Of a stretch of DNA of 14,211 bases, positions 2,219 to 13,360 are shown one piece after another (the stretch's first letter is position 1; each line of letters opens with the position of its first letter). The stretch lies in UHGV virus genome UHGV-0117243, one strand, 5' to 3'. The notes beneath the pieces were generated by a model. The model saw only the letters and a program-made list of their open reading frames with translations, was not told the DNA's origin and did no database searches. Made by a program: the position numbers and the translations under genes. The stretch is from a virus.

Positions 2219-3490
2219 TTACGGATTACCGAAGAACTGACCGCCCATGTGAGGGTTAAAGCACACATATGCAGGAAGTAAGTCGAAGCGCATTTTTTGC
2301 ACGTTGGCATCGCCATCTGCGTATTTATGTACGCGGATGGAGAAACCTTCATATGTTGCAACAGCAGAATCAATACTGTGCAGTTTCGGCAGTGGGATAG
2401 AGCCAAGTCCACAGAAGAACTTGTTATAGAACAGGTTTGGCTTCATTGTCTGGCTAGCAGTGCCTACTACAGATACGGCATCGCCTGCCTCTACCTGACG
2501 ACTTACAGAGTTGTACTGCGGGTTTGTAGTGTCATAAATCGGAACACCAGAAAGCGTAACCGTCACATCGCCACTGCTGTCTGAATTAGCATCAGCAGTA
2601 ACCGTTGCAGTGAAGCTAATTGGTGTGGCTCCGTTATACAACGCCTGTTTGGTCTGCTGTTGCAGCCAGTAGGTATTGGTGAATTTAACCTGATCACCAG
2701 CTTTCAGAAAACCTGTAACGCTGGCTGTCGCTCCGGTCAATGTTACAGTGAACTGGTATGAGTCTTTAACTGCGTTATAGGTAACAGTTGGCTGTGTTTT
2801 GACTGTCAGTGTTCCGCCAAATGCCCCCTGCGTACGAGAGGCAAGCCCATTAGACATCAGTGCGCGAATGCCGCCAAAATTGGTTGGAATCTGCGCATTC
2901 TCCCATGCAGTACGAACCAATTGATCTGAAGCGTGCAAACCAGTCTGCGCATCAGCAAGTCGCTGTGCAGACCATGGATCCATTACAGCATAGTTTTCAC
3001 CTTCATTAACGCCGAGGTCTTTCAGGAAAGATGCCGTCTGCGCAACATCAGACCATTTGGTGATTGGAGTATTGGGGCTACCAAGTGACAACGCACCGTT
3101 ATTCATCATGAAGTGAGCAAGCTCTGTTTCAAGGTCGGTAACGATTCGCTGGCGAACCGGCGCGAGAATTTCTTCCAGTTGGTTAAGCTTGATCGCTTCC
3201 TCCAGTTGCTGATATTCAACAGCAACAGTGATGTAGTTACCTACACGCCCCGTAGCTTTACCTGAGATCAGGTTGTTTTTATTTTGCCCTGAAATATCAC
3301 CAGTGGGAGTACGGAGGGATGAGAATTGATGCGGACGTTTAAAGCTAACGCTATCGCCAGTGCTGGAGTTGATTTCACCTGCCAGCAACTGACGGTCTAC
3401 GGTTTTCGCCAGAACTAAATCTGACATAAAACCCGGAAGGAATTTTTTCAGAACGATTTGACTGACGTTACTGTCGAGATTGTTAGGCAT
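2219..3490 (-). CDS. Major capsid (coat) protein, P22/Sf6 coat family (423 aa)
   Basis: 423-aa ORF directly after the scaffold gene with RBS AAGGAAAAG. Size and position match P22-like coat proteins (Sf6 coat is 423 aa as recalled). Followed by a terminator. Confidence 0.75.
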   Translation of the reverse strand: MPNNLDSNVSQIVLKKFLPGFMSDLVLAKTVDRQLLAGEINSSTGDSVSFKRPHQFSSLRTPTGDISGQNKNNLISGKATGRVGNYITVAVEYQQLEEAIKLNQLEEILAPVRQRIVTDLETELAHFMMNNGALSLGSPNTPITKWSDVAQTASFLKDLGVNEGENYAVMDPWSAQRLADAQTGLHASDQLVRTAWENAQIPTNFGGIRALMSNGLASRTQGAFGGTLTVKTQPTVTYNAVKDSYQFTVTLTGATASVTGFLKAGDQVKFTNTYWLQQQTKQALYNGATPISFTATVTADANSDSSGDVTVTLSGVPIYDTTNPQYNSVSRQVEAGDAVSVVGTASQTMKPNLFYNKFFCGLGSIPLPKLHSIDSAVATYEGFSIRVHKYADGDANVQKMRFDLLPAYVCFNPHMGGQFFGNP

Positions 3491-3501
3491 TTATCTTTTC
3501 C

Positions 3502-4386
3502 TTATTCGATTTTTGCGCCGGGGCATAATTTGTTGAATTCGTCTTGTTTCGCATCAGCACCGCCACCACGTACTTCCGGCTCTGGCTTGATGGCTTTCTT
3601 TGGTTTTGGAGCAAGGCTTACCTGTTTGCTAATCTGCCCCAAGAGGAATGCTGCGCGAATTGGATCTGTCTCAGCGGCTACACGCTGGCGTAATTGCTGG
3701 CTCTTACCTAAGCCATAGGCGAGTAGTTCAGAGCCTTCGTCTGCACAGTGAATGATGATTTCCTGCTGAATTGGTGGTAGCTCACTAAGAACAATGGCCT
3801 CCATTTCCTGATAATCTTTCACAGGAAGTTTGGCTGCCCGTTGTTTATGCGCTTCTAACCTTTGCTGGAAACGCTGTTGGTATTCCTGTTGCTGACGTAG
3901 TTTTTGTTGCTGCTGCTGTTCGACACGGCCTTTTTTCTCATGCCAATCAGTCAATGCCTGTTCAAACGCCTGTTCGTCATAATCACACGACTCAAGAGTC
4001 GGTTTTGGTGGAATAGCGTCTGGTTGTGGTTGCTGATGTTCCGCAGGCTTGGCTAATGCTTCCTCAAGCTGGCGGCGCAACTCACGGTTTTCTTTCTGTG
4101 TTTCTTTGAAGCCTTTGCGAAGATCTTTCACCCATTGCGGTGCAGGTTGCCCGTCAATGTGATCATCATCGTCAGCGTTAAGCTGAATTTCTTCATCACC
4201 AATACGCAAGGCGTAATCTTCTGGTGTCTCTTCGGTTTTTTCAGGATCAGTTGCCATCTCTTTTCCGTTGTCATCCTGGCTTTCATTCTCAGGCTGTGAC
4301 TCTGTTTGGATGATGGTTTCTTCTGCATTTTCCTGTGTTTCAGACAGGTCAATAACCTGACCGTCGATGATCAGTTCGTTTTCCAT
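3502..4386 (-). CDS. Scaffolding protein (294 aa), P22 gp8-like
   Basis: Acidic, Q/E-rich, predicted helical low-complexity protein between portal and coat. The C-terminal region (..KDYQEMEAIVLSELPP..LAPKPKK..) resembles the P22 scaffolding C-terminal coat-binding domain. RBS AGGAG. Confidence 0.7.
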   Translation of the reverse strand: MENELIIDGQVIDLSETQENAEETIIQTESQPENESQDDNGKEMATDPEKTEETPEDYALRIGDEEIQLNADDDDHIDGQPAPQWVKDLRKGFKETQKENRELRRQLEEALAKPAEHQQPQPDAIPPKPTLESCDYDEQAFEQALTDWHEKKGRVEQQQQQKLRQQQEYQQRFQQRLEAHKQRAAKLPVKDYQEMEAIVLSELPPIQQEIIIHCADEGSELLAYGLGKSQQLRQRVAAETDPIRAAFLLGQISKQVSLAPKPKKAIKPEPEVRGGGADAKQDEFNKLCPGAKIE

Positions 4387-7941: not shown

Positions 7942-8465
7942 TTTCCGAATAGAGTGCTCATCGGTGATGTTTCAATCTGGATTGCGCCGCCGTCTTTGCC
8001 TGTTAGTTCGTGAGAAGCTTGTTCTTTAAACGCCTGAACAGAAACATGCTTACCAAGAAGTTCGAGGTTTTTAACCTTATCAGGCCATTTGATTTTCTTC
8101 AGGAGTGCGGCGCTATCTGCGGATGCCATCTCCACGACATCCATTCCTGATAACGTTGTGCGCCATACCTTAGGCCAGTCTTTAATGGGTTTTAGCTCAC
8201 CGTTTTGCAGGAGAATGTCAAGCACATCCATCTGGTCGATTTCAATAAGGCGATTAAGTACATATTCTGCATTAATACCAACAAGATCATTGCGTTGTGC
8301 TTTCAGTTCGGCGATTCTGAGTTGTATGTCAGGTTTTGACATGTTTTCGGACGCAGTACGGTTGGCTGTTTTTGCGCTGTACCCCGCCCGAATAGCCGCT
8401 TGCGTGGCGTTTAAATCGATGAGGTACTCGCGACAGAACATTTCTTGCTTGTCGGTGAGTGCCAT
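7938..8465 (-). CDS. terS: Terminase small subunit (175 aa)
   Basis: N-terminus MALTDKQEMFCREYLIDLNATQAAIRAGYS is a typical phage small-terminase HTH region. Translationally coupled to terL. RBS AAAGGTAA. Confidence 0.8.
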   Translation of the reverse strand: MALTDKQEMFCREYLIDLNATQAAIRAGYSAKTANRTASENMSKPDIQLRIAELKAQRNDLVGINAEYVLNRLIEIDQMDVLDILLQNGELKPIKDWPKVWRTTLSGMDVVEMASADSAALLKKIKWPDKVKNLELLGKHVSVQAFKEQASHELTGKDGGAIQIETSPMSTLFGK

Positions 8466-8489
8466 TTAATTACCTTTGGGAGATGCCCA

Positions 8490-9023
8490 ATGAGTTTAGA
8501 AAAATTACTAATCAAAAACAGAAAGTGCGGTTCATGCTCTGTGTGCTGCACTTCGCTACGAATTGAACAGCCAACGTTAAAAAAGTTGGCTGACATCCCA
8601 TGCCAGCACCTTAAACATCAGGGAGGATGTGCAATTTATGATGAACGCCCTTCTGTTTGCCGCACTTGGTATTGCGGATGGCGAATTCTGGATATAGGAC
8701 CAGAGATGCGTCCTGATCGGAGTGGAGTTCTAATCCGTTATGATGGATCATCACTCTGCTTTCAACCCGTAGACAAAAACCGCGTATCTGCTTTGATCGA
8801 ACCAGAGCCTCTGCGAATTTTGGGTGGCCTGATAGATCAAGGTATGAAAGTGGAAATATCGGTTCCAACAAAGGAAGGGTATTGCTCAGCCAATATTAAT
8901 GTCACTGAGCATATGTCAGAGGTTGTAAAAAGCAGAGAGTATGTAAAAATGCGTTCGGCTCTTTTGGCGCTCATTCAATTCGCATCACGAGCAAAGACAG
9001 ATCCAGTAGAACCGCTGGAATGA
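8490..9023 (+). CDS. YkgJ/UPF0153-family cysteine-cluster protein (CxxCxxCC putative Zn/Fe-binding domain), 177 aa; accessory (moron) gene on the opposite strand
   Basis: Motif CGSCSVCC followed by ..PCQHL..GGCAIYDERPSVCRTWYCGW.., characteristic of the CxxCxxCC family. RBS GGGAGA 7 nt before ATG at 8490. Own rho-independent terminator immediately downstream. Start chosen at MSLEKL rather than the upstream Met, which would overlap terS. Confidence 0.65.
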   Translation: MSLEKLLIKNRKCGSCSVCCTSLRIEQPTLKKLADIPCQHLKHQGGCAIYDERPSVCRTWYCGWRILDIGPEMRPDRSGVLIRYDGSSLCFQPVDKNRVSALIEPEPLRILGGLIDQGMKVEISVPTKEGYCSANINVTEHMSEVVKSREYVKMRSALLALIQFASRAKTDPVEPLE

Positions 9024-9298: not shown

Positions 9299-9778
9299 TT
9301 AAATGATTTGCCAGTCTTCAGCCATCAGGTCGCCAATGGATGGAGCCCATGTAGCAAGGCGGTTCTGTGAGTTTTTCAATACAAGCGTGTCATTGAAAGT
9401 TGGCTCGCCAACATATTCGCCAAAGCCATAACCCAACGCAGACGCTAATTTTTCTCCTTTCACGAGATAAACAAACTGATCTTTCCCATTCCATCCTGCC
9501 CGCTGCAAACTTTTGCCCTGTTTTAACGCTTCCATGGCAAGGCCGAAACTTAGCCCTGATACCGGACGATAAGCCTTTTCGAATACTTCTTTTGGACTCC
9601 AGCTAACGTAGCCATCAAAGCGATCGGTGTTAGGTTTTCCGCCATCCAGATATTCAACCAGATAGCCTTCGTCCTCGCCGTTTTCTCCGGCAGGAAGCTG
9701 CCAGCCACGAAAATCGTTATATGCCTGTCTCGTCATCGGAAAGGCGTTAATCAGTTTTACGCCAATATGTTGGGTCAT
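9299..9778 (-). CDS. Hypothetical two-domain protein (160 aa) with C-terminal DUF2829-like domain
   Basis: C-terminal half ..AMEALKQGKSLQRAGWNGKDQFV..LATWAPSIGDLMAEDWQII fits the DUF2829 pattern as recalled (..GWNGK.. and ..AEDW.. motifs). N-terminal half unrecognised. Start set at Met42 of the 200-aa ORF because the upstream codons run through a terminator hairpin. RBS weak (AGGT). Confidence 0.55.
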   Translation of the reverse strand: MTQHIGVKLINAFPMTRQAYNDFRGWQLPAGENGEDEGYLVEYLDGGKPNTDRFDGYVSWSPKEVFEKAYRPVSGLSFGLAMEALKQGKSLQRAGWNGKDQFVYLVKGEKLASALGYGFGEYVGEPTFNDTLVLKNSQNRLATWAPSIGDLMAEDWQII

Positions 9779-9800
9779 AAAATTACCTATGGAGTTGGGA

Positions 9801-9825
9801 ATAAAAAAACCCCGCGAATGCGAGG
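9801..9825 (-). terminator. Rho-independent terminator between Rz and the DUF2829-like gene
   Basis: On the minus-strand transcript: cctcgc-attc-gcgggg hairpin (6 bp including one G-U pair) followed by UUUUUUUAUU. On the plus strand the same stem carries a C-A mismatch and is preceded, not followed, by the A/T run, so it is strand-specific. Confidence 0.65.
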
Positions 9826-10000
9826 CTAAATCCTGGTGTTTGTGATGACTGGCTCTTATCTCAACGCAGCCCCTTACCGCGCGCCAGATGCTCAATATCA
9901 AGCATCAGCAATGAGATGTTTAATCTGGATTCACTCCAGAAGTGATCACCACCCTGTCTACAGAGCCAGATGTGAAGGATGATGAGTAGAATTATCGCTA

Positions 10001-10438: not shown

Positions 10439-10911
10439 ACCTCAATCTCTCTGACCGTTCCGCCAGCCTCTTTGAATTTTGCAATCAGGCTGTCAGCCTT
10501 ATGCTCGAACTGACCATAACCAGCGCCAGGCAGTGAAGCCCAGATATTGCTGCAACGGTCGATAGCCTGACGAATATCACCGCGATCAATCATCGGTAAA
10601 GCGCCACGCTCTTTAATCTGCTGTAGTGCAACAGCGTCCTGGCTTTTCGGAGAGAAGTCTTTCAGCCCAAGCTGCTTACGGTATGCATCCCACCAACGGG
10701 AAAGAAGCTGGTAACGTCCGGCTGCTGTTGATTTGAGTTTGGGGTTTAGCGTGACAAGTTTGCGAGGGTGATCTGAGTAATCAGTGAATAGCTCTCCGCC
10801 TACAATGACGTCATAACCATGATTTCTGGTTTTCTGCCGTCCGTTATCAGTTCCCTCTGACCACGCCAGCATATCGAGGAACGCCTTACGTTGATTATTG
10901 ATTTCCACCAT
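10435..10911 (-). CDS. R: Endolysin, lambda R-type lytic transglycosylase (158 aa)
   Basis: Translation [39 protein letters not shown].. is collinear with lambda R over the full 158 aa (from memory). Overlaps the S stop as in lambda. Confidence 0.95.
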
Positions 10912-11218
10912 CTTCTACTCCGGCTTTTTTAGCAGCGAAGCGTTTGATAAGCGAACCAATCGAGTCAGTACCGATGTAGCCGATGAACACGCTCGTTATA
11001 TAAGCGAGATTGCTACTTAGTCCGGCGAAGTCGAGAAGGTCACGAATGAACCAGGCGATAATGGCGCACATCGTTGCGTCGATTACTGTTTTTGTAAACG
11101 CACCGCCATTATATCTGCCGCGAAGGTACGCCATTGCAAACGCAAGGATTGCCCCGATGCCTTGTTCCTTTGCCGCGAGAATGGCGGCTAACAGGTCATG
11201 TTTTTCTGGCATCTTCAT
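10895..11218 (-). CDS. S: Holin/antiholin, lambda S (S107/S105 dual-start), 107 aa
   Basis: [34 protein letters not shown].. matches lambda S, including the Met1-Lys2-Met3 dual-start motif. Confidence 0.95.
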
Positions 11219-11460
11219 GTCTTACCCCCAATAAGGGGATTTGCTCTATTTAATTAGGAATAAGGTCGATTACTGATAGAACAAATCCAGGCTACTGTGT
11301 TTAGTAATCAGATTTGTTCGTGACCGATATGCACGGGCAAAACGGCAGGAGGTTGTTAGCGCAACTTCTTGCCACCCGCTTTCACGAAGGTCATGTGTAG
11401 AAGGCCGCAGCGTAACTATCACTGATGAATTCAGGATAGCCAGTGGCTACGGCTCAGTTA

Positions 11461-11536
11461 TGGTGCTGGTTAACGGACTTGAACCGCTACCCATTCGCTT
11501 ACAAGGCGACTGCTCTACCATTGGAGCTAAACCAGC
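11461..11536 (-). tRNA. tRNA-Thr (anticodon UGU), 76 nt with encoded CCA
   Basis: Manual fold of the minus-strand sequence: perfect 7-bp acceptor stem (gctggtt/aaccagc), 4-bp D stem with GG in the loop, anticodon loop cuUGUaa, 5-nt variable loop, T arm agcgg-TTCAAGT-ccgtt, discriminator A, CCA. One mismatch at the base of the anticodon stem. Confidence 0.65.
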
Positions 11537-11541
11537 ATATT

Positions 11542-11616
11542 TGGCGGGACAGCGTGGACTCGAACCACGATAAGAAGGTTAACAGCCTTCCGTAATGACC
11601 TTTATACGACTGACCC
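11542..11616 (-). tRNA. tRNA-Asn-like (anticodon GUU), 75 nt with encoded CCA; possibly partly degenerate
   Basis: Anticodon stem-loop gaagg-CUGUUAA-ccttc and T arm cgtgg-TTCGAGT-ccacg resemble E. coli tRNA-Asn. The acceptor stem has a T-T mismatch at pair 4 and the D stem has only 3 pairs. Begins 3 nt after the tR' U-run. Confidence 0.5.
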
Positions 11617-11618
11617 AA

Positions 11619-11676
11619 ATAAAAAATCCCGAAACCGTTATGCAGGCTCTAACTATTACCTGCGAACTGTTTCGGG
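11619..11676 (-). terminator. tR' terminator (end of the lambda-type 6S late leader transcript)
   Basis: Minus strand reads cccgaaacagttcgcaggtaatagttagagcctgcataacggtttcggg + auuuuuuau, collinear with lambda tR' as recalled, about 194 nt downstream of the pR' start. Confidence 0.8.
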
Positions 11677-11812
11677 ATTGCATTTTGCAGACCTCTCAGC
11701 CTGCGATGGTTGGAGTTCCAGACGATACGTCGAAGTGACCAACTAGGCGGAATCGGTAGTAAGCGCCGCCTCTTTTTATCTCACTACCACAACGAGCGAA
11801 TTAACCCATCGT

Positions 11813-11848
11813 TGGGTCAAATTTACCCAACTTTATTCAATAAGTCAA
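11813..11848 (-). promoter_or_regulatory. Late promoter pR' with overlapping Q-utilisation (qut) site
   Basis: Minus strand TTGACT-N17-TAAATT followed by ..gacccaacgatgggttaattcgctcg.., nearly identical to lambda pR'/qut as recalled. Located about 40 bp downstream of the Q stop codon. Confidence 0.8.
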
Positions 11849-11890
11849 TATCATGCCGTTAATATGTTGCCATCCGTGGCAATCATGCTG

Positions 11891-12514
11891 CTAACGTGTG
11901 ACCGCGTTCAAAATGTTGTCTGCGATTGACTCTTCTTTGTGGCATTGCACCACCAGAGCGTCATACAGCGGCTTAACAGTGCGTGACCAGGTGGGTTGAG
12001 TAAGGTTTGGGATTAGCATCGTTACAGCGCGATATGCGGCGCTTGCTGGCATCCTTGAATAGCCGACACCTTTGCATCTTCCGCACTCTTTCTCGACAAC
12101 TCTCCCCCACAGCTCTGTTTTTGCTATATCAACCGCACGGCCTGTACCGTGGCAATCTCTGCATCTTGCACCCGGCGTCGCGGCACTACGGCAATAATCC
12201 GCATAAGCGAATGTTGCGAGAACTTGCAGTACCTTTGCCTTAGTATTTCCTTCAAGCTTTGCCACACCACGGTATTTCCCCGATACCTTGTGTGCAAATT
12301 GCATCAGATAGTTGATAGCCTTTTGTTTGTCGTTCTGGCTGAGTTCGTGCTTACCACAGAATGCAGCCATTCCGAATCCGGCTTGTGATTGCGCCATCCC
12401 CATAGCAGCCATCACATCAGTACCGGAAAGAGAGTCAGAAGCCGTAGCCCGTGGTGAGTCGCTCATCATCGGGCTTTTTGGCGAATGAAATTTAGCTACG
12501 CTTTCGAGTCTCAT
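11891..12514 (-). CDS. Q: Late gene antiterminator Q (207 aa)
   Basis: [48 protein letters not shown].. matches lambda Q in sequence and length. Start overlaps the NinI stop (ATGA). Confidence 0.95.
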
Positions 12515-13176
12515 GCGCCTTCTCCCTGTACCTGAATCAATGTGAGATTTCCGCAGAACACTGCGCCGGTATCGATATACATCTGGTTGGCAAATTTGAG
12601 CGGTTTCACTGCTGGCGTATGACCAAAGATGAACGTGTCCGCGCCTTTAATTTCTTTCACGATCCCGTCTTGTGAGTTGCTGATTCGTTCGCGGTTCCAG
12701 ATTACCTGCTGATGATCAACTGGCTTTCCAAACTCGTATTCGTCACAAGGATAATCGGTGTGGCAGATGACATATTTTTTATCTTTACTCACCAGTTCGA
12801 TGATTAACGGAAGTTCATCTGCTTTATGGGCAAGAGCTTTAGCCAGAATTTCTTTGTCGTAATCGAGATTAAAGAACCAGCCACCGCCATTAAGCAGCCA
12901 GTGATTGACGTTTCCGCGCTCTGATAAGCCATCAATCATCATTTGCTCATGGTTTCCACGTACAGCTCTGAACCAGGGGAATGTGATTAATTCTAGGCAT
13001 TCAACGTTCTCTGTACCGCGATCGACCAAATCGCCAACCGAGATAAGAAGGTCTTTTTTGGTGTCGAATCCTATCGTCTCCAGTTTTTTCATCAGGTTCG
13101 TGTAGCATCCGTGCAGATCGCCAACTACCCAAATATTTCGGTATTTGCTGCCATCAATTTTTTCGTAATAGCGCAT
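12511..13176 (-). CDS. ninI: Ser/Thr protein phosphatase NinI (lambda PPase), 221 aa from MRYYEK
   Basis: Metallophosphatase motifs GDLHG, GDLVDRG and GNHE. Start set at [25 protein letters not shown] (13176) with RBS GGAGTGAAAGAG, overlapping the NinH 3' end as in lambda; the longer 246-aa ORF is rejected. Confidence 0.9.
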
Positions 13177-13360
13177 CTCTTTCACTCCATCCGCGATGAA
13201 CCATGAGAACGTCGTTGACGATGGCGTGCATTTTCCAGTCTTTATCATCAACGTATTTTCTTACCGTGCCGCGACTACATTTCAGTCTGCGTGCCACTTC
13301 TGTCTGGTTTCCGTATGCTTCAACGAGCATGTCTGGAATGGTTTTTACTGAGAACGTCAT
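13154..13360 (-). CDS. ninH: NinH (68 aa)
   Basis: [42 protein letters not shown].. matches lambda NinH. Overlaps the NinG stop (ATGA). Confidence 0.9.

Follow-up and report, generated by a model that had tools for sequence, protein, structure and literature searches.

Directly behind the late terminator tR', the window, that is the whole stretch of 14,211 nucleotides analysed in this work, carries two tandem tRNA genes, tRNA-Asn(GUU) followed by tRNA-Thr(UGU), and the sequence evidence argues that both are functional phage tRNAs. The pair is an already known cassette that has been annotated for two decades, from phage 21 and Sf6 onward, and its Thr member is known functionally as well. We hold with moderate confidence that the phage 21/Sf6-type pair constitutes a nuclease-resistant replacement-tRNA module which also supplies decoding capacity for ACA. 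The original prediction, which was made from the sequence alone, is partly supported by these results; it mainly went astray in suspecting a defect in the Asn gene.

Results

Gene calls and layout of the late region

ARAGORN called exactly two tRNA genes on the 14.2-kb window (Table 1). The arrangement first proposed, Asn-GUU and then Thr-UGU in tandem on the late strand, 5 nt apart and both with encoded CCA, is borne out in every point, as ARAGORN, Rfam and the sequence itself agree. When 11461-11616 was examined with tRNA finders, both genes were called by ARAGORN and both exceeded the gathering score of 29 for Rfam RF00005: tRNA-Thr reached 61.5 bits (E 1.5e-11) and tRNA-Asn 55.3 bits (E 7.5e-10), in each case over model positions 1-71 of 71. 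In the anticodon arm of tRNA-Thr (GUCGC/GCGAA), G27.A43 is mismatched and U28 pairs with A42; that of tRNA-Asn reads GAAGG/CCUUC, the mismatches of the latter molecule being U4.U69 and U13.U22. Upon thermodynamic folding tRNA-Thr adopted the full cloverleaf, while tRNA-Asn gave a cloverleaf-like structure with four arms and a shifted D-arm. Identity elements for AsnRS are G34, U35, U36 and G73, those for ThrRS are G1-C72, C2-G71, G35 and U36; all of them are found in the respective sequences from the window.

The phage or prophage is P22-like (Lederbergvirus), with virion genes resembling those of HK620 and Sf6 and with a late-control and lysis region of the lambda type; its late strand is the minus strand, on which S, R and Rz run downward from 11218. 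Apart from single-base differences the pR' stretch is lambda sequence, and the sequence of tR' is that of lambda up to the T-run. The region spanning tR' (11617-11700) folds with -29.5 kcal/mol (z -4.7), and none of 200 shuffled sequences folded as well. The 5' end of tRNA-Asn lies 2 nt past the T-rich tail of this terminator.

Table 1. Features from gene Q to the holin gene, listed in the direction of late transcription
Feature	Position	Strand	Description	Basis
Late antiterminator gene Q	11891-12514	minus	lambda-type, 207 aa	ORF; position homologous to Q in Kapi1, HK620, GPEC1405
Late promoter pR'	11848-11820	minus	TTGACT-17-TAAATT	promoter consensus scan
Terminator tR'	11619-11679	minus	lambda-type; hairpin 11625-11679, U6 tract 11619-11624	folding, lambda alignment
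Replacement segment	11460-11618	minus	159 bp, with the whole tRNA cassette	exact border finding against lambda
tRNA-Asn(GUU)	11542-11616	minus	75 nt, G73, encoded CCA	ARAGORN, Rfam
Inter-tRNA spacer	11537-11541	minus	5 nt, AAUAU	sequence
tRNA-Thr(UGU)	11461-11536	minus	76 nt, A73, encoded CCA	ARAGORN, Rfam
Leader upstream of S	11219-11459	minus	lambda-type	near-identical to lambda from AACTGAGCCGTAGCC onward
Holin gene S	10895-11218	minus	107 aa, first late gene past the cassette	ORF; holin in Kapi1, HK620, Sf6

Alignment with lambda and Kapi1 places the replacement segment where lambda has positions 44782-44944, between near-identical flanks. An exchange of about 180 bp of non-coding lambda sequence for about 160 bp had been predicted; the replacement as such is confirmed, and the sizes have to be corrected to 163 and 159 bp. 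The lambda segment was also considered as a decayed tRNA pair and rejected, because ARAGORN found nothing in lambda and the similarity of the two segments stays within the range of shuffled sequences, the global alignment score being reached by 91 and the local score by 364 of 1000 shuffles.

A crude consensus scan of the late strand between 11150 and 12000, which weak promoters could escape, found no promoter-like site besides pR'. A separate promoter for the tRNAs between Q and S was therefore discarded. Since no other such site is present and the cassette begins 2 nt behind the T-rich tail, it is plausible that expression of the tRNAs depends on pR' and on read-through at tR'; such read-through may be leaky in lysogens. 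On the plus strand, antisense to the tRNAs (11461-11616), a clear transcript signal has been reported at this site in Kapi1, and a similar one in the Salmonella prophage BTP1 (2026 transcriptome paper); the consensus scan of plus-strand positions 11150-12000 found no promoter-like site. An ORF of 50 codons on the same strand (11443-11595) overlaps the tRNAs and is probably spurious.

Integrity of the Asn gene

Because of imperfections in its acceptor and D-stems, the Asn copy had been suspected to be non-functional or to have an atypical role. Sequence variants argue otherwise. They were gathered with a 16-mer from the D-arm, the invariance of which is thus given by construction. Among 14 distinct variants of tRNA-Asn, double-sided changes occur at three pairs (6:67, 7:66 and 28:42), and both U4.U69 and U13.U22 are kept. 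A corresponding comparison for tRNA-Thr revealed double-sided changes at seven pairs, with the G27.A43 mismatch retained in 18 of 18 lambdoid-type variants. For both tRNAs the covariation score was exceeded by none of 500 shuffles and by no slid control. Since the mismatches of tRNA-Asn are retained among variants that show compensatory changes, they are to be seen as features of the molecule and not as signs of decay. Together with the Rfam score of 55.3 bits and the identity of the gene in six phages, the conserved mismatches and compensatory changes speak against the suspicion; a pseudogene or defective tRNA-Asn was rejected on the basis of the score and the compensatory changes.

A known cassette in a mosaic setting

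Both tRNAs are identical, letter by letter, to the copies in phage 21, Sf6, Kapi1 and HK446. For tRNA-Asn the identity of 100% extends to phages L and JLK-2012, and in HK446 a region of 168 bp is 100% identical. The GenBank record of Sf6 labels the tRNA-Asn 'similar to phage 21', assigns the tRNA-Thr to ACA and places the genes directly past the late terminator. The tandem GUU/UGU pair downstream of Q is described in the SfI paper, which counts Sf6, ST64T, PS3 and phage 21 among the carriers of at least one of the two tRNAs (PMC3636060), and the same tRNA site is treated in the phage L paper (PMC8022706). The pair can therefore not count as a notable novelty, as had been assumed at the outset, given that the Sf6 record already cites phage 21 and that it is treated in the papers on SfI and phage L. 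The NCBI pipeline annotates the Asn-Thr pair in E. coli prophages and finds the cassette routinely, and the discovery value is small.

The cassette is present in 369 of 5426 complete E. coli genomes, in 59 phage records (coverage of at least 80%) and on at least 120 IMG/VR contigs. Among the 120 IMG/VR matches listed, ARAGORN called Asn-Thr in 80 contigs, and others bear expanded arrays, for example Asn-Phe-Thr-Arg. The terminator context is of the phage-21 type in 70 and of the lambda type in 13 of these 120 listed matches.

With the pair of phage 21 and Sf6 the window shares the tRNA sequences, their order, the 5-nt length of the spacer, the position behind the late terminator and, downstream, a lambda-type leader of S; a pair of this type also occurs in SfI, HK446, Kapi1, mEp506, phiv205-1 and many prophages of E. 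coli, Shigella and Salmonella. One base of the spacer differs (AAUAU in the window, AACAU in Sf6 and phage 21). A further difference concerns the sequences upstream: in phage 21 and Sf6 the cassette follows a Q/pR'/tR' region of the phage-21 type, whereas this region is lambda-type in the window, HK446 and Kapi1. The lambda-type context is common to these three, mEp506 and phiv205-1. The left joint of the cassette in the window falls into a TTTTTTAT stretch that lambda-type and phage-21-type terminators have in common. The window accordingly presents a minority mosaic, in which a lambda-type Q/tR' is joined to a phage-21-type tRNA module at the common T-run.

The HK446 records (JQ086372 / NC_019714) hold no annotated features, and hence no tRNAs, at approximately 35091-35258. 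In a recent preprint HK446 is said to encode a single tRNA, Thr(UGU) (10.64898/2026.07.10.737580); its Asn(GUU) neighbour appears to have been overlooked there.

The site behind tR' is a swap point that is occupied by tRNAs, by an HNH endonuclease gene, by a bare leader or by tRNAs together with stx2. An E. coli GPEC1405 prophage is 99.5% identical to the window over 88% coverage; between Q and S it has an HNH endonuclease gene and no tRNAs (locus excerpt 2401-2892). HK620, whose match covers 71% of the window, has a leader of about 1 kb without tRNA (locus excerpt 2513-3533). In phage L the second tRNA is annotated as tRNA-Leu(UAA) (locus excerpt 1087-1158); PS3, ST-32 and ST160 belong with phage L here. 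The phage L gene is a diverged Thr gene with a 4-nt alignment gap and a rewritten anticodon arm, is missed by ARAGORN, and probably represents a decayed Thr gene rather than a tRNA for Leu. The annotated tRNA-Thr of JLK-2012 (locus excerpt 1587-1662) looks chimeric, its 5' third being cassette-like and the rest resembling host thrU; with a host-type anticodon arm and two broken pairs it, too, is missed by ARAGORN. The JLK-2012 cassette consists of Asn-Thr-Gly followed by tciA/tciB, and the same gene follows Asn-Thr in P1.

A likeness to Stx phages had also been pointed out and stands. In 933W, ileZ-argN-argO lie between the Q-dependent late promoter with its terminators and stx2A, that is, as in the window, ahead of the first downstream genes. 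The isoacceptors differ as anticipated, those of 933W serving rare Ile and Arg codons instead of Asn and Thr, and 933W differs from the window further in having an annotated putative promoter, pT, additional terminators, and stx2 rather than lysis genes thereafter.

The same order, Asn(GUU) and then Thr(UGU), is found in P1 and N4, adjacent in the former and with a Ser tRNA in between in the latter. Their Thr tRNAs are 81-87% identical to that of the window; their Asn tRNAs, which begin with GATGGTG and are 58-62% identical to the window copy, form a second lineage. Unlike that of the window, the Asn-Thr context of P1 is not a late leader. P1 and N4 are unrelated coliphages (locus excerpts 725-878 for P1 and 437-686 for N4).

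Discussion

Proposed replacement of tRNAs cleaved by host-resident nucleases

The role of the Thr member is best understood in the light of published work on P2 OLD, the effector of the classic P2-lambda interference. As Govande et al. (2025, PMC12445682) found, this nuclease kills via cleavage mainly of the host tRNA-Thr(UGU), ThrU, whose anticodon stem contains paired CNG motifs that are cut behind the C. Thr(UGU) tRNAs of phages save cells from OLD by replacing the cleaved host tRNA. That of phage 21 protects against OLD toxicity, is resistant in vitro, which has been ascribed to C28U/G42A and a shorter anticodon stem, and decodes ACA in vivo (PMC12445682). The tRNA-Thr of the window is this very molecule, tRNA-Thr21, with the U28-A42 pair, with G27 and A43 unpaired and without CNG on either strand; at positions 28-30/40-42 it has UCG/CGA where the host has CUG/CAG. 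Its sequence equals that of the Thr(UGU) of HK446, which brings plaquing of HK97, HK542 and Bas34, all sensitive to OLD, back to near wild type, while the E. coli Thr(UGU) is without effect on them (10.64898/2026.07.10.737580). The set of phage Thr(UGU) molecules that counter OLD comprises tRNA-Thr21, tRNA-Thr6 and those of T4, Bas32 and HK446, of which the first and the last are the window sequence. Whereas these tRNAs were tested from plasmids, in all OLD rescue experiments of both studies (PMC12445682; 10.64898/2026.07.10.737580), the window copy sits in its native late leader.

A second nuclease brings the Asn tRNA into consideration. AriB of the PARIS system cleaves host Lys(UUU), Thr(UGU) and, less so, Asn(GUU), at a site U36-A-A-U39-C40|N41 with the cut between nucleotides 40 and 41; U39 is critical, and its exchange for A abolished cleavage (Belukhina et al., 2025, PMC12409363). 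The Lys, Thr and Asn tRNAs of T5 jointly neutralise PARIS (PMC12409363). Both motifs are present in host thrU (UAAUCA; CUG/CAG) and in host asnT (UAAUCC; CGG/CCG). Neither the UAAU of AriB nor the paired CNG of OLD is found in the window tRNA-Thr (UAAGCG; UCG/CGA) or tRNA-Asn (UAACCU; AAG/CUU). At the AriB site the Thr tRNA has G39 and G41 compared to U39 and A41 in its host counterpart, and the Asn tRNA has C39 and U41 compared to U39 and C41. By these motifs, the cassette would cover two AriB targets out of three, one of them the top target of OLD, with versions lacking the recognition sequences of both enzymes, and it is this that provides a first coherent rationale for the pairing of Asn with Thr. 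The T5 set agrees with the window in containing Thr(UGU) and Asn(GUU) and differs in that Lys(UUU) occurs in T5 only. The T5 and window copies all lack the U39 of UAAU, the two Thr tRNAs both read UAAGC, and overall the window tRNAs are 61-64% identical to the T5 versions.

On these grounds the following course of events is proposed. The cassette would be a small mosaic module placed at the start of the late operon, and transcription from pR' past tR', by way of Q or of leaky read-through, is the most likely source of the tRNAs. Host tRNA-processing enzymes would excise them from the late transcript, CCA addition being unneeded. Their main role would be to equip the phage with tRNAs of its own in place of those that Toprim tRNA nucleases resident in the host destroy: with its changed and shortened anticodon stem the Thr tRNA is, as the plasmid experiments showed for this very sequence, a poor substrate for OLD, such that ACA codons can still be read, and the Asn tRNA may play the same replacement part for AAC and AAU. 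Extra ACA decoding capacity would be a compatible secondary benefit.

Several observations stand against a replacement role. The position behind tR' implies that the tRNAs appear late, and gene Q itself contains four ACA codons which have to be read before. The cassette is absent from HK620 and the GPEC1405 prophage despite near-identical late genes; because of this absence, and because the second tRNA is decayed in phage L and ST64T, it has to be regarded as dispensable. A single Thr tRNA neither rescued lambda nor relieved OLD toxicity in recB cells (10.64898/2026.07.10.737580). HK446 also possesses a protein inhibitor of OLD, Oad2 (10.64898/2026.07.10.737580), and thus has more than the tRNA to set against this nuclease. 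With regard to PARIS, ARAGORN found no tRNA-Lys(UUU), the prime target of AriB, on the window; the T5-type set is incomplete in this respect, and for lack of Lys(UUU) the cassette alone is not expected to overcome B185 PARIS. A uniform rule by which phage Asn and Thr tRNAs are devoid of nuclease motifs was considered and fails: the P1 Thr tRNA keeps the paired CNG, the P1 Asn tRNA keeps UAAUCA, and in Klebsiella-type Asn variants C28-G42 restores CNG.

The replacement reading can be extended to the pair as a unit, in that Asn and Thr together would form a two-tRNA counter-defence module matched to the targets of OLD/PARIS-family Toprim tRNases, Asn included. This extension is put forward tentatively. 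The nucleases concerned would be prophage- and satellite-borne. If it is true, A28-U42, C39 and perhaps U4.U69 of the Asn tRNA would be selected resistance features, and one selective pressure would lie behind the repeated occurrence of Asn followed by Thr in lambdoid phages, P1 and N4. The Asn tRNA, called unexplained in genome papers, is the point of remaining interest, as it bears on the question whether the tRNAs of temperate lambdoid phages amount to a minimal kit against Toprim tRNases.

Codon supply and other explanations

According to a purely translational explanation, which was proposed in the SfI (PMC3636060) and phage L (PMC8022706) papers, the tRNAs boost decoding of late-gene codons and are unrelated to defence systems. 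A comparison of codon frequencies with the host, suggested along with the original prediction, gave a divided answer. On the one hand, ACA makes up 28% of the Thr codons in 13 late genes as opposed to 10% in 42 K-12 genes, which corresponds to 14.3 versus 5.4 per 1000 codons (2.6-fold, odds ratio 3.45, p = 7e-9) and is the third-largest absolute excess among all codons; it accounts for 11 of the 39 Thr codons in the capsid gene and for 5 of 10 in the scaffold gene. On the other hand, Asn codons are level in the same gene sets (40.5 versus 37.5 per 1000, p = 0.43), with AAC, if anything, less favoured than in K-12. The analysis of SfI had the same outcome, no Asn codon bias being found and the Asn tRNA being called unexplained (PMC3636060). 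Moreover, AGA, AGG, AUA and UCA are in larger relative excess than ACA and yet have no tRNA in the cassette, and HK620 manages without tRNAs although its late genes are 97% identical to those of the window. Finally, cells challenged with OLD are rescued by phage Thr(UGU) and not by extra host Thr(UGU), and the conserved G27.A43 mismatch is left unexplained. As Asn codons are not enriched and both HK620 and the GPEC1405 prophage are devoid of the tRNAs, codon supply is at most a partial and dispensable benefit, and we consider it rather unlikely to be the whole explanation.

Less probable by far is that the tRNAs act as punctuation, namely as RNase P/RNase E sites that detach the 6S/qut leader and set the 5' end or stability of the late mRNA. 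The gap of 2 nt between the tR' tail and tRNA-Asn would indeed let RNase P split leader from message; conserved anticodons, identity elements and CCA are, however, unneeded in mere processing signals, the Thr tRNA decodes ACA in vivo (PMC12445682), and phages such as lambda and HK620 do without the cassette.

It is most improbable of all that the genes are relics, be it pieces of a host tRNA locus, leftovers of an attachment site or a means of compensating for a host tRNA gene that integration had disrupted, even though temperate phages often integrate into tRNA genes and keep partial copies at attP, since both genes have their full length and score highly with Rfam, share just 62% identity with E. 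coli asnT and 71% with thrU, and are flanked by Q and S in the late leader, away from int/attP. These identities rule out the host-locus fragments whose possibility had been raised initially, and the tRNAs are intact genes. Compensation has been suggested for the HK446 tRNA (10.64898/2026.07.10.737580). Neither the location in the late leader nor the integration sites agree with this idea: the site of Kapi1 is argW, which stays intact, that of SfI and L is thrW(CGU) (PMC3636060, PMC8022706), and argW and thrW are neither Asn(GUU) nor Thr(UGU) genes.

Neighbouring genes

In the replacement reading favoured here, an experimentally validated anti-OLD tRNA heads a late operon that also holds a candidate Tad2-like gene. 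This ORF (9299-9901, minus strand), located between the lysis and terminase genes, matches the Pfam Tad2-like family PF11195 with 76.5 bits. The family name stands for Thoeris anti-defense 2-like. It counts as another candidate for counter-defence close to the cassette; its true start is probably an internal ATG at residue 42 of the 200-aa ORF. The product is 65% identical to Kapi1_043, reported as the most highly expressed gene of Kapi1 under all conditions (2026 Kapi1 transcriptome paper).

An ORF on the plus strand (8445-9023), flanked by the lysis module and the small terminase gene, runs opposite to the late operon and looks like a reverse-orientation moron. It has a weak match to CxxCxxCC (PF03692; 20.7 bits, below the cut-off of 23 bits), and its GPEC1405 equivalent is annotated as 'YkgJ family cysteine cluster protein'.

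Upstream of Q, the ORF at 12511-13251 (minus strand) encodes a calcineurin-like phosphoesterase (Metallophos, 61.6 bits) that resembles the NinI-type serine/threonine phosphatase found at the same position in Sf6 and E. coli O111 prophages. Kapi1 and HK620 carry roi/HNH/rusA/ninH in its place, and the nin region is therefore mosaic as well.
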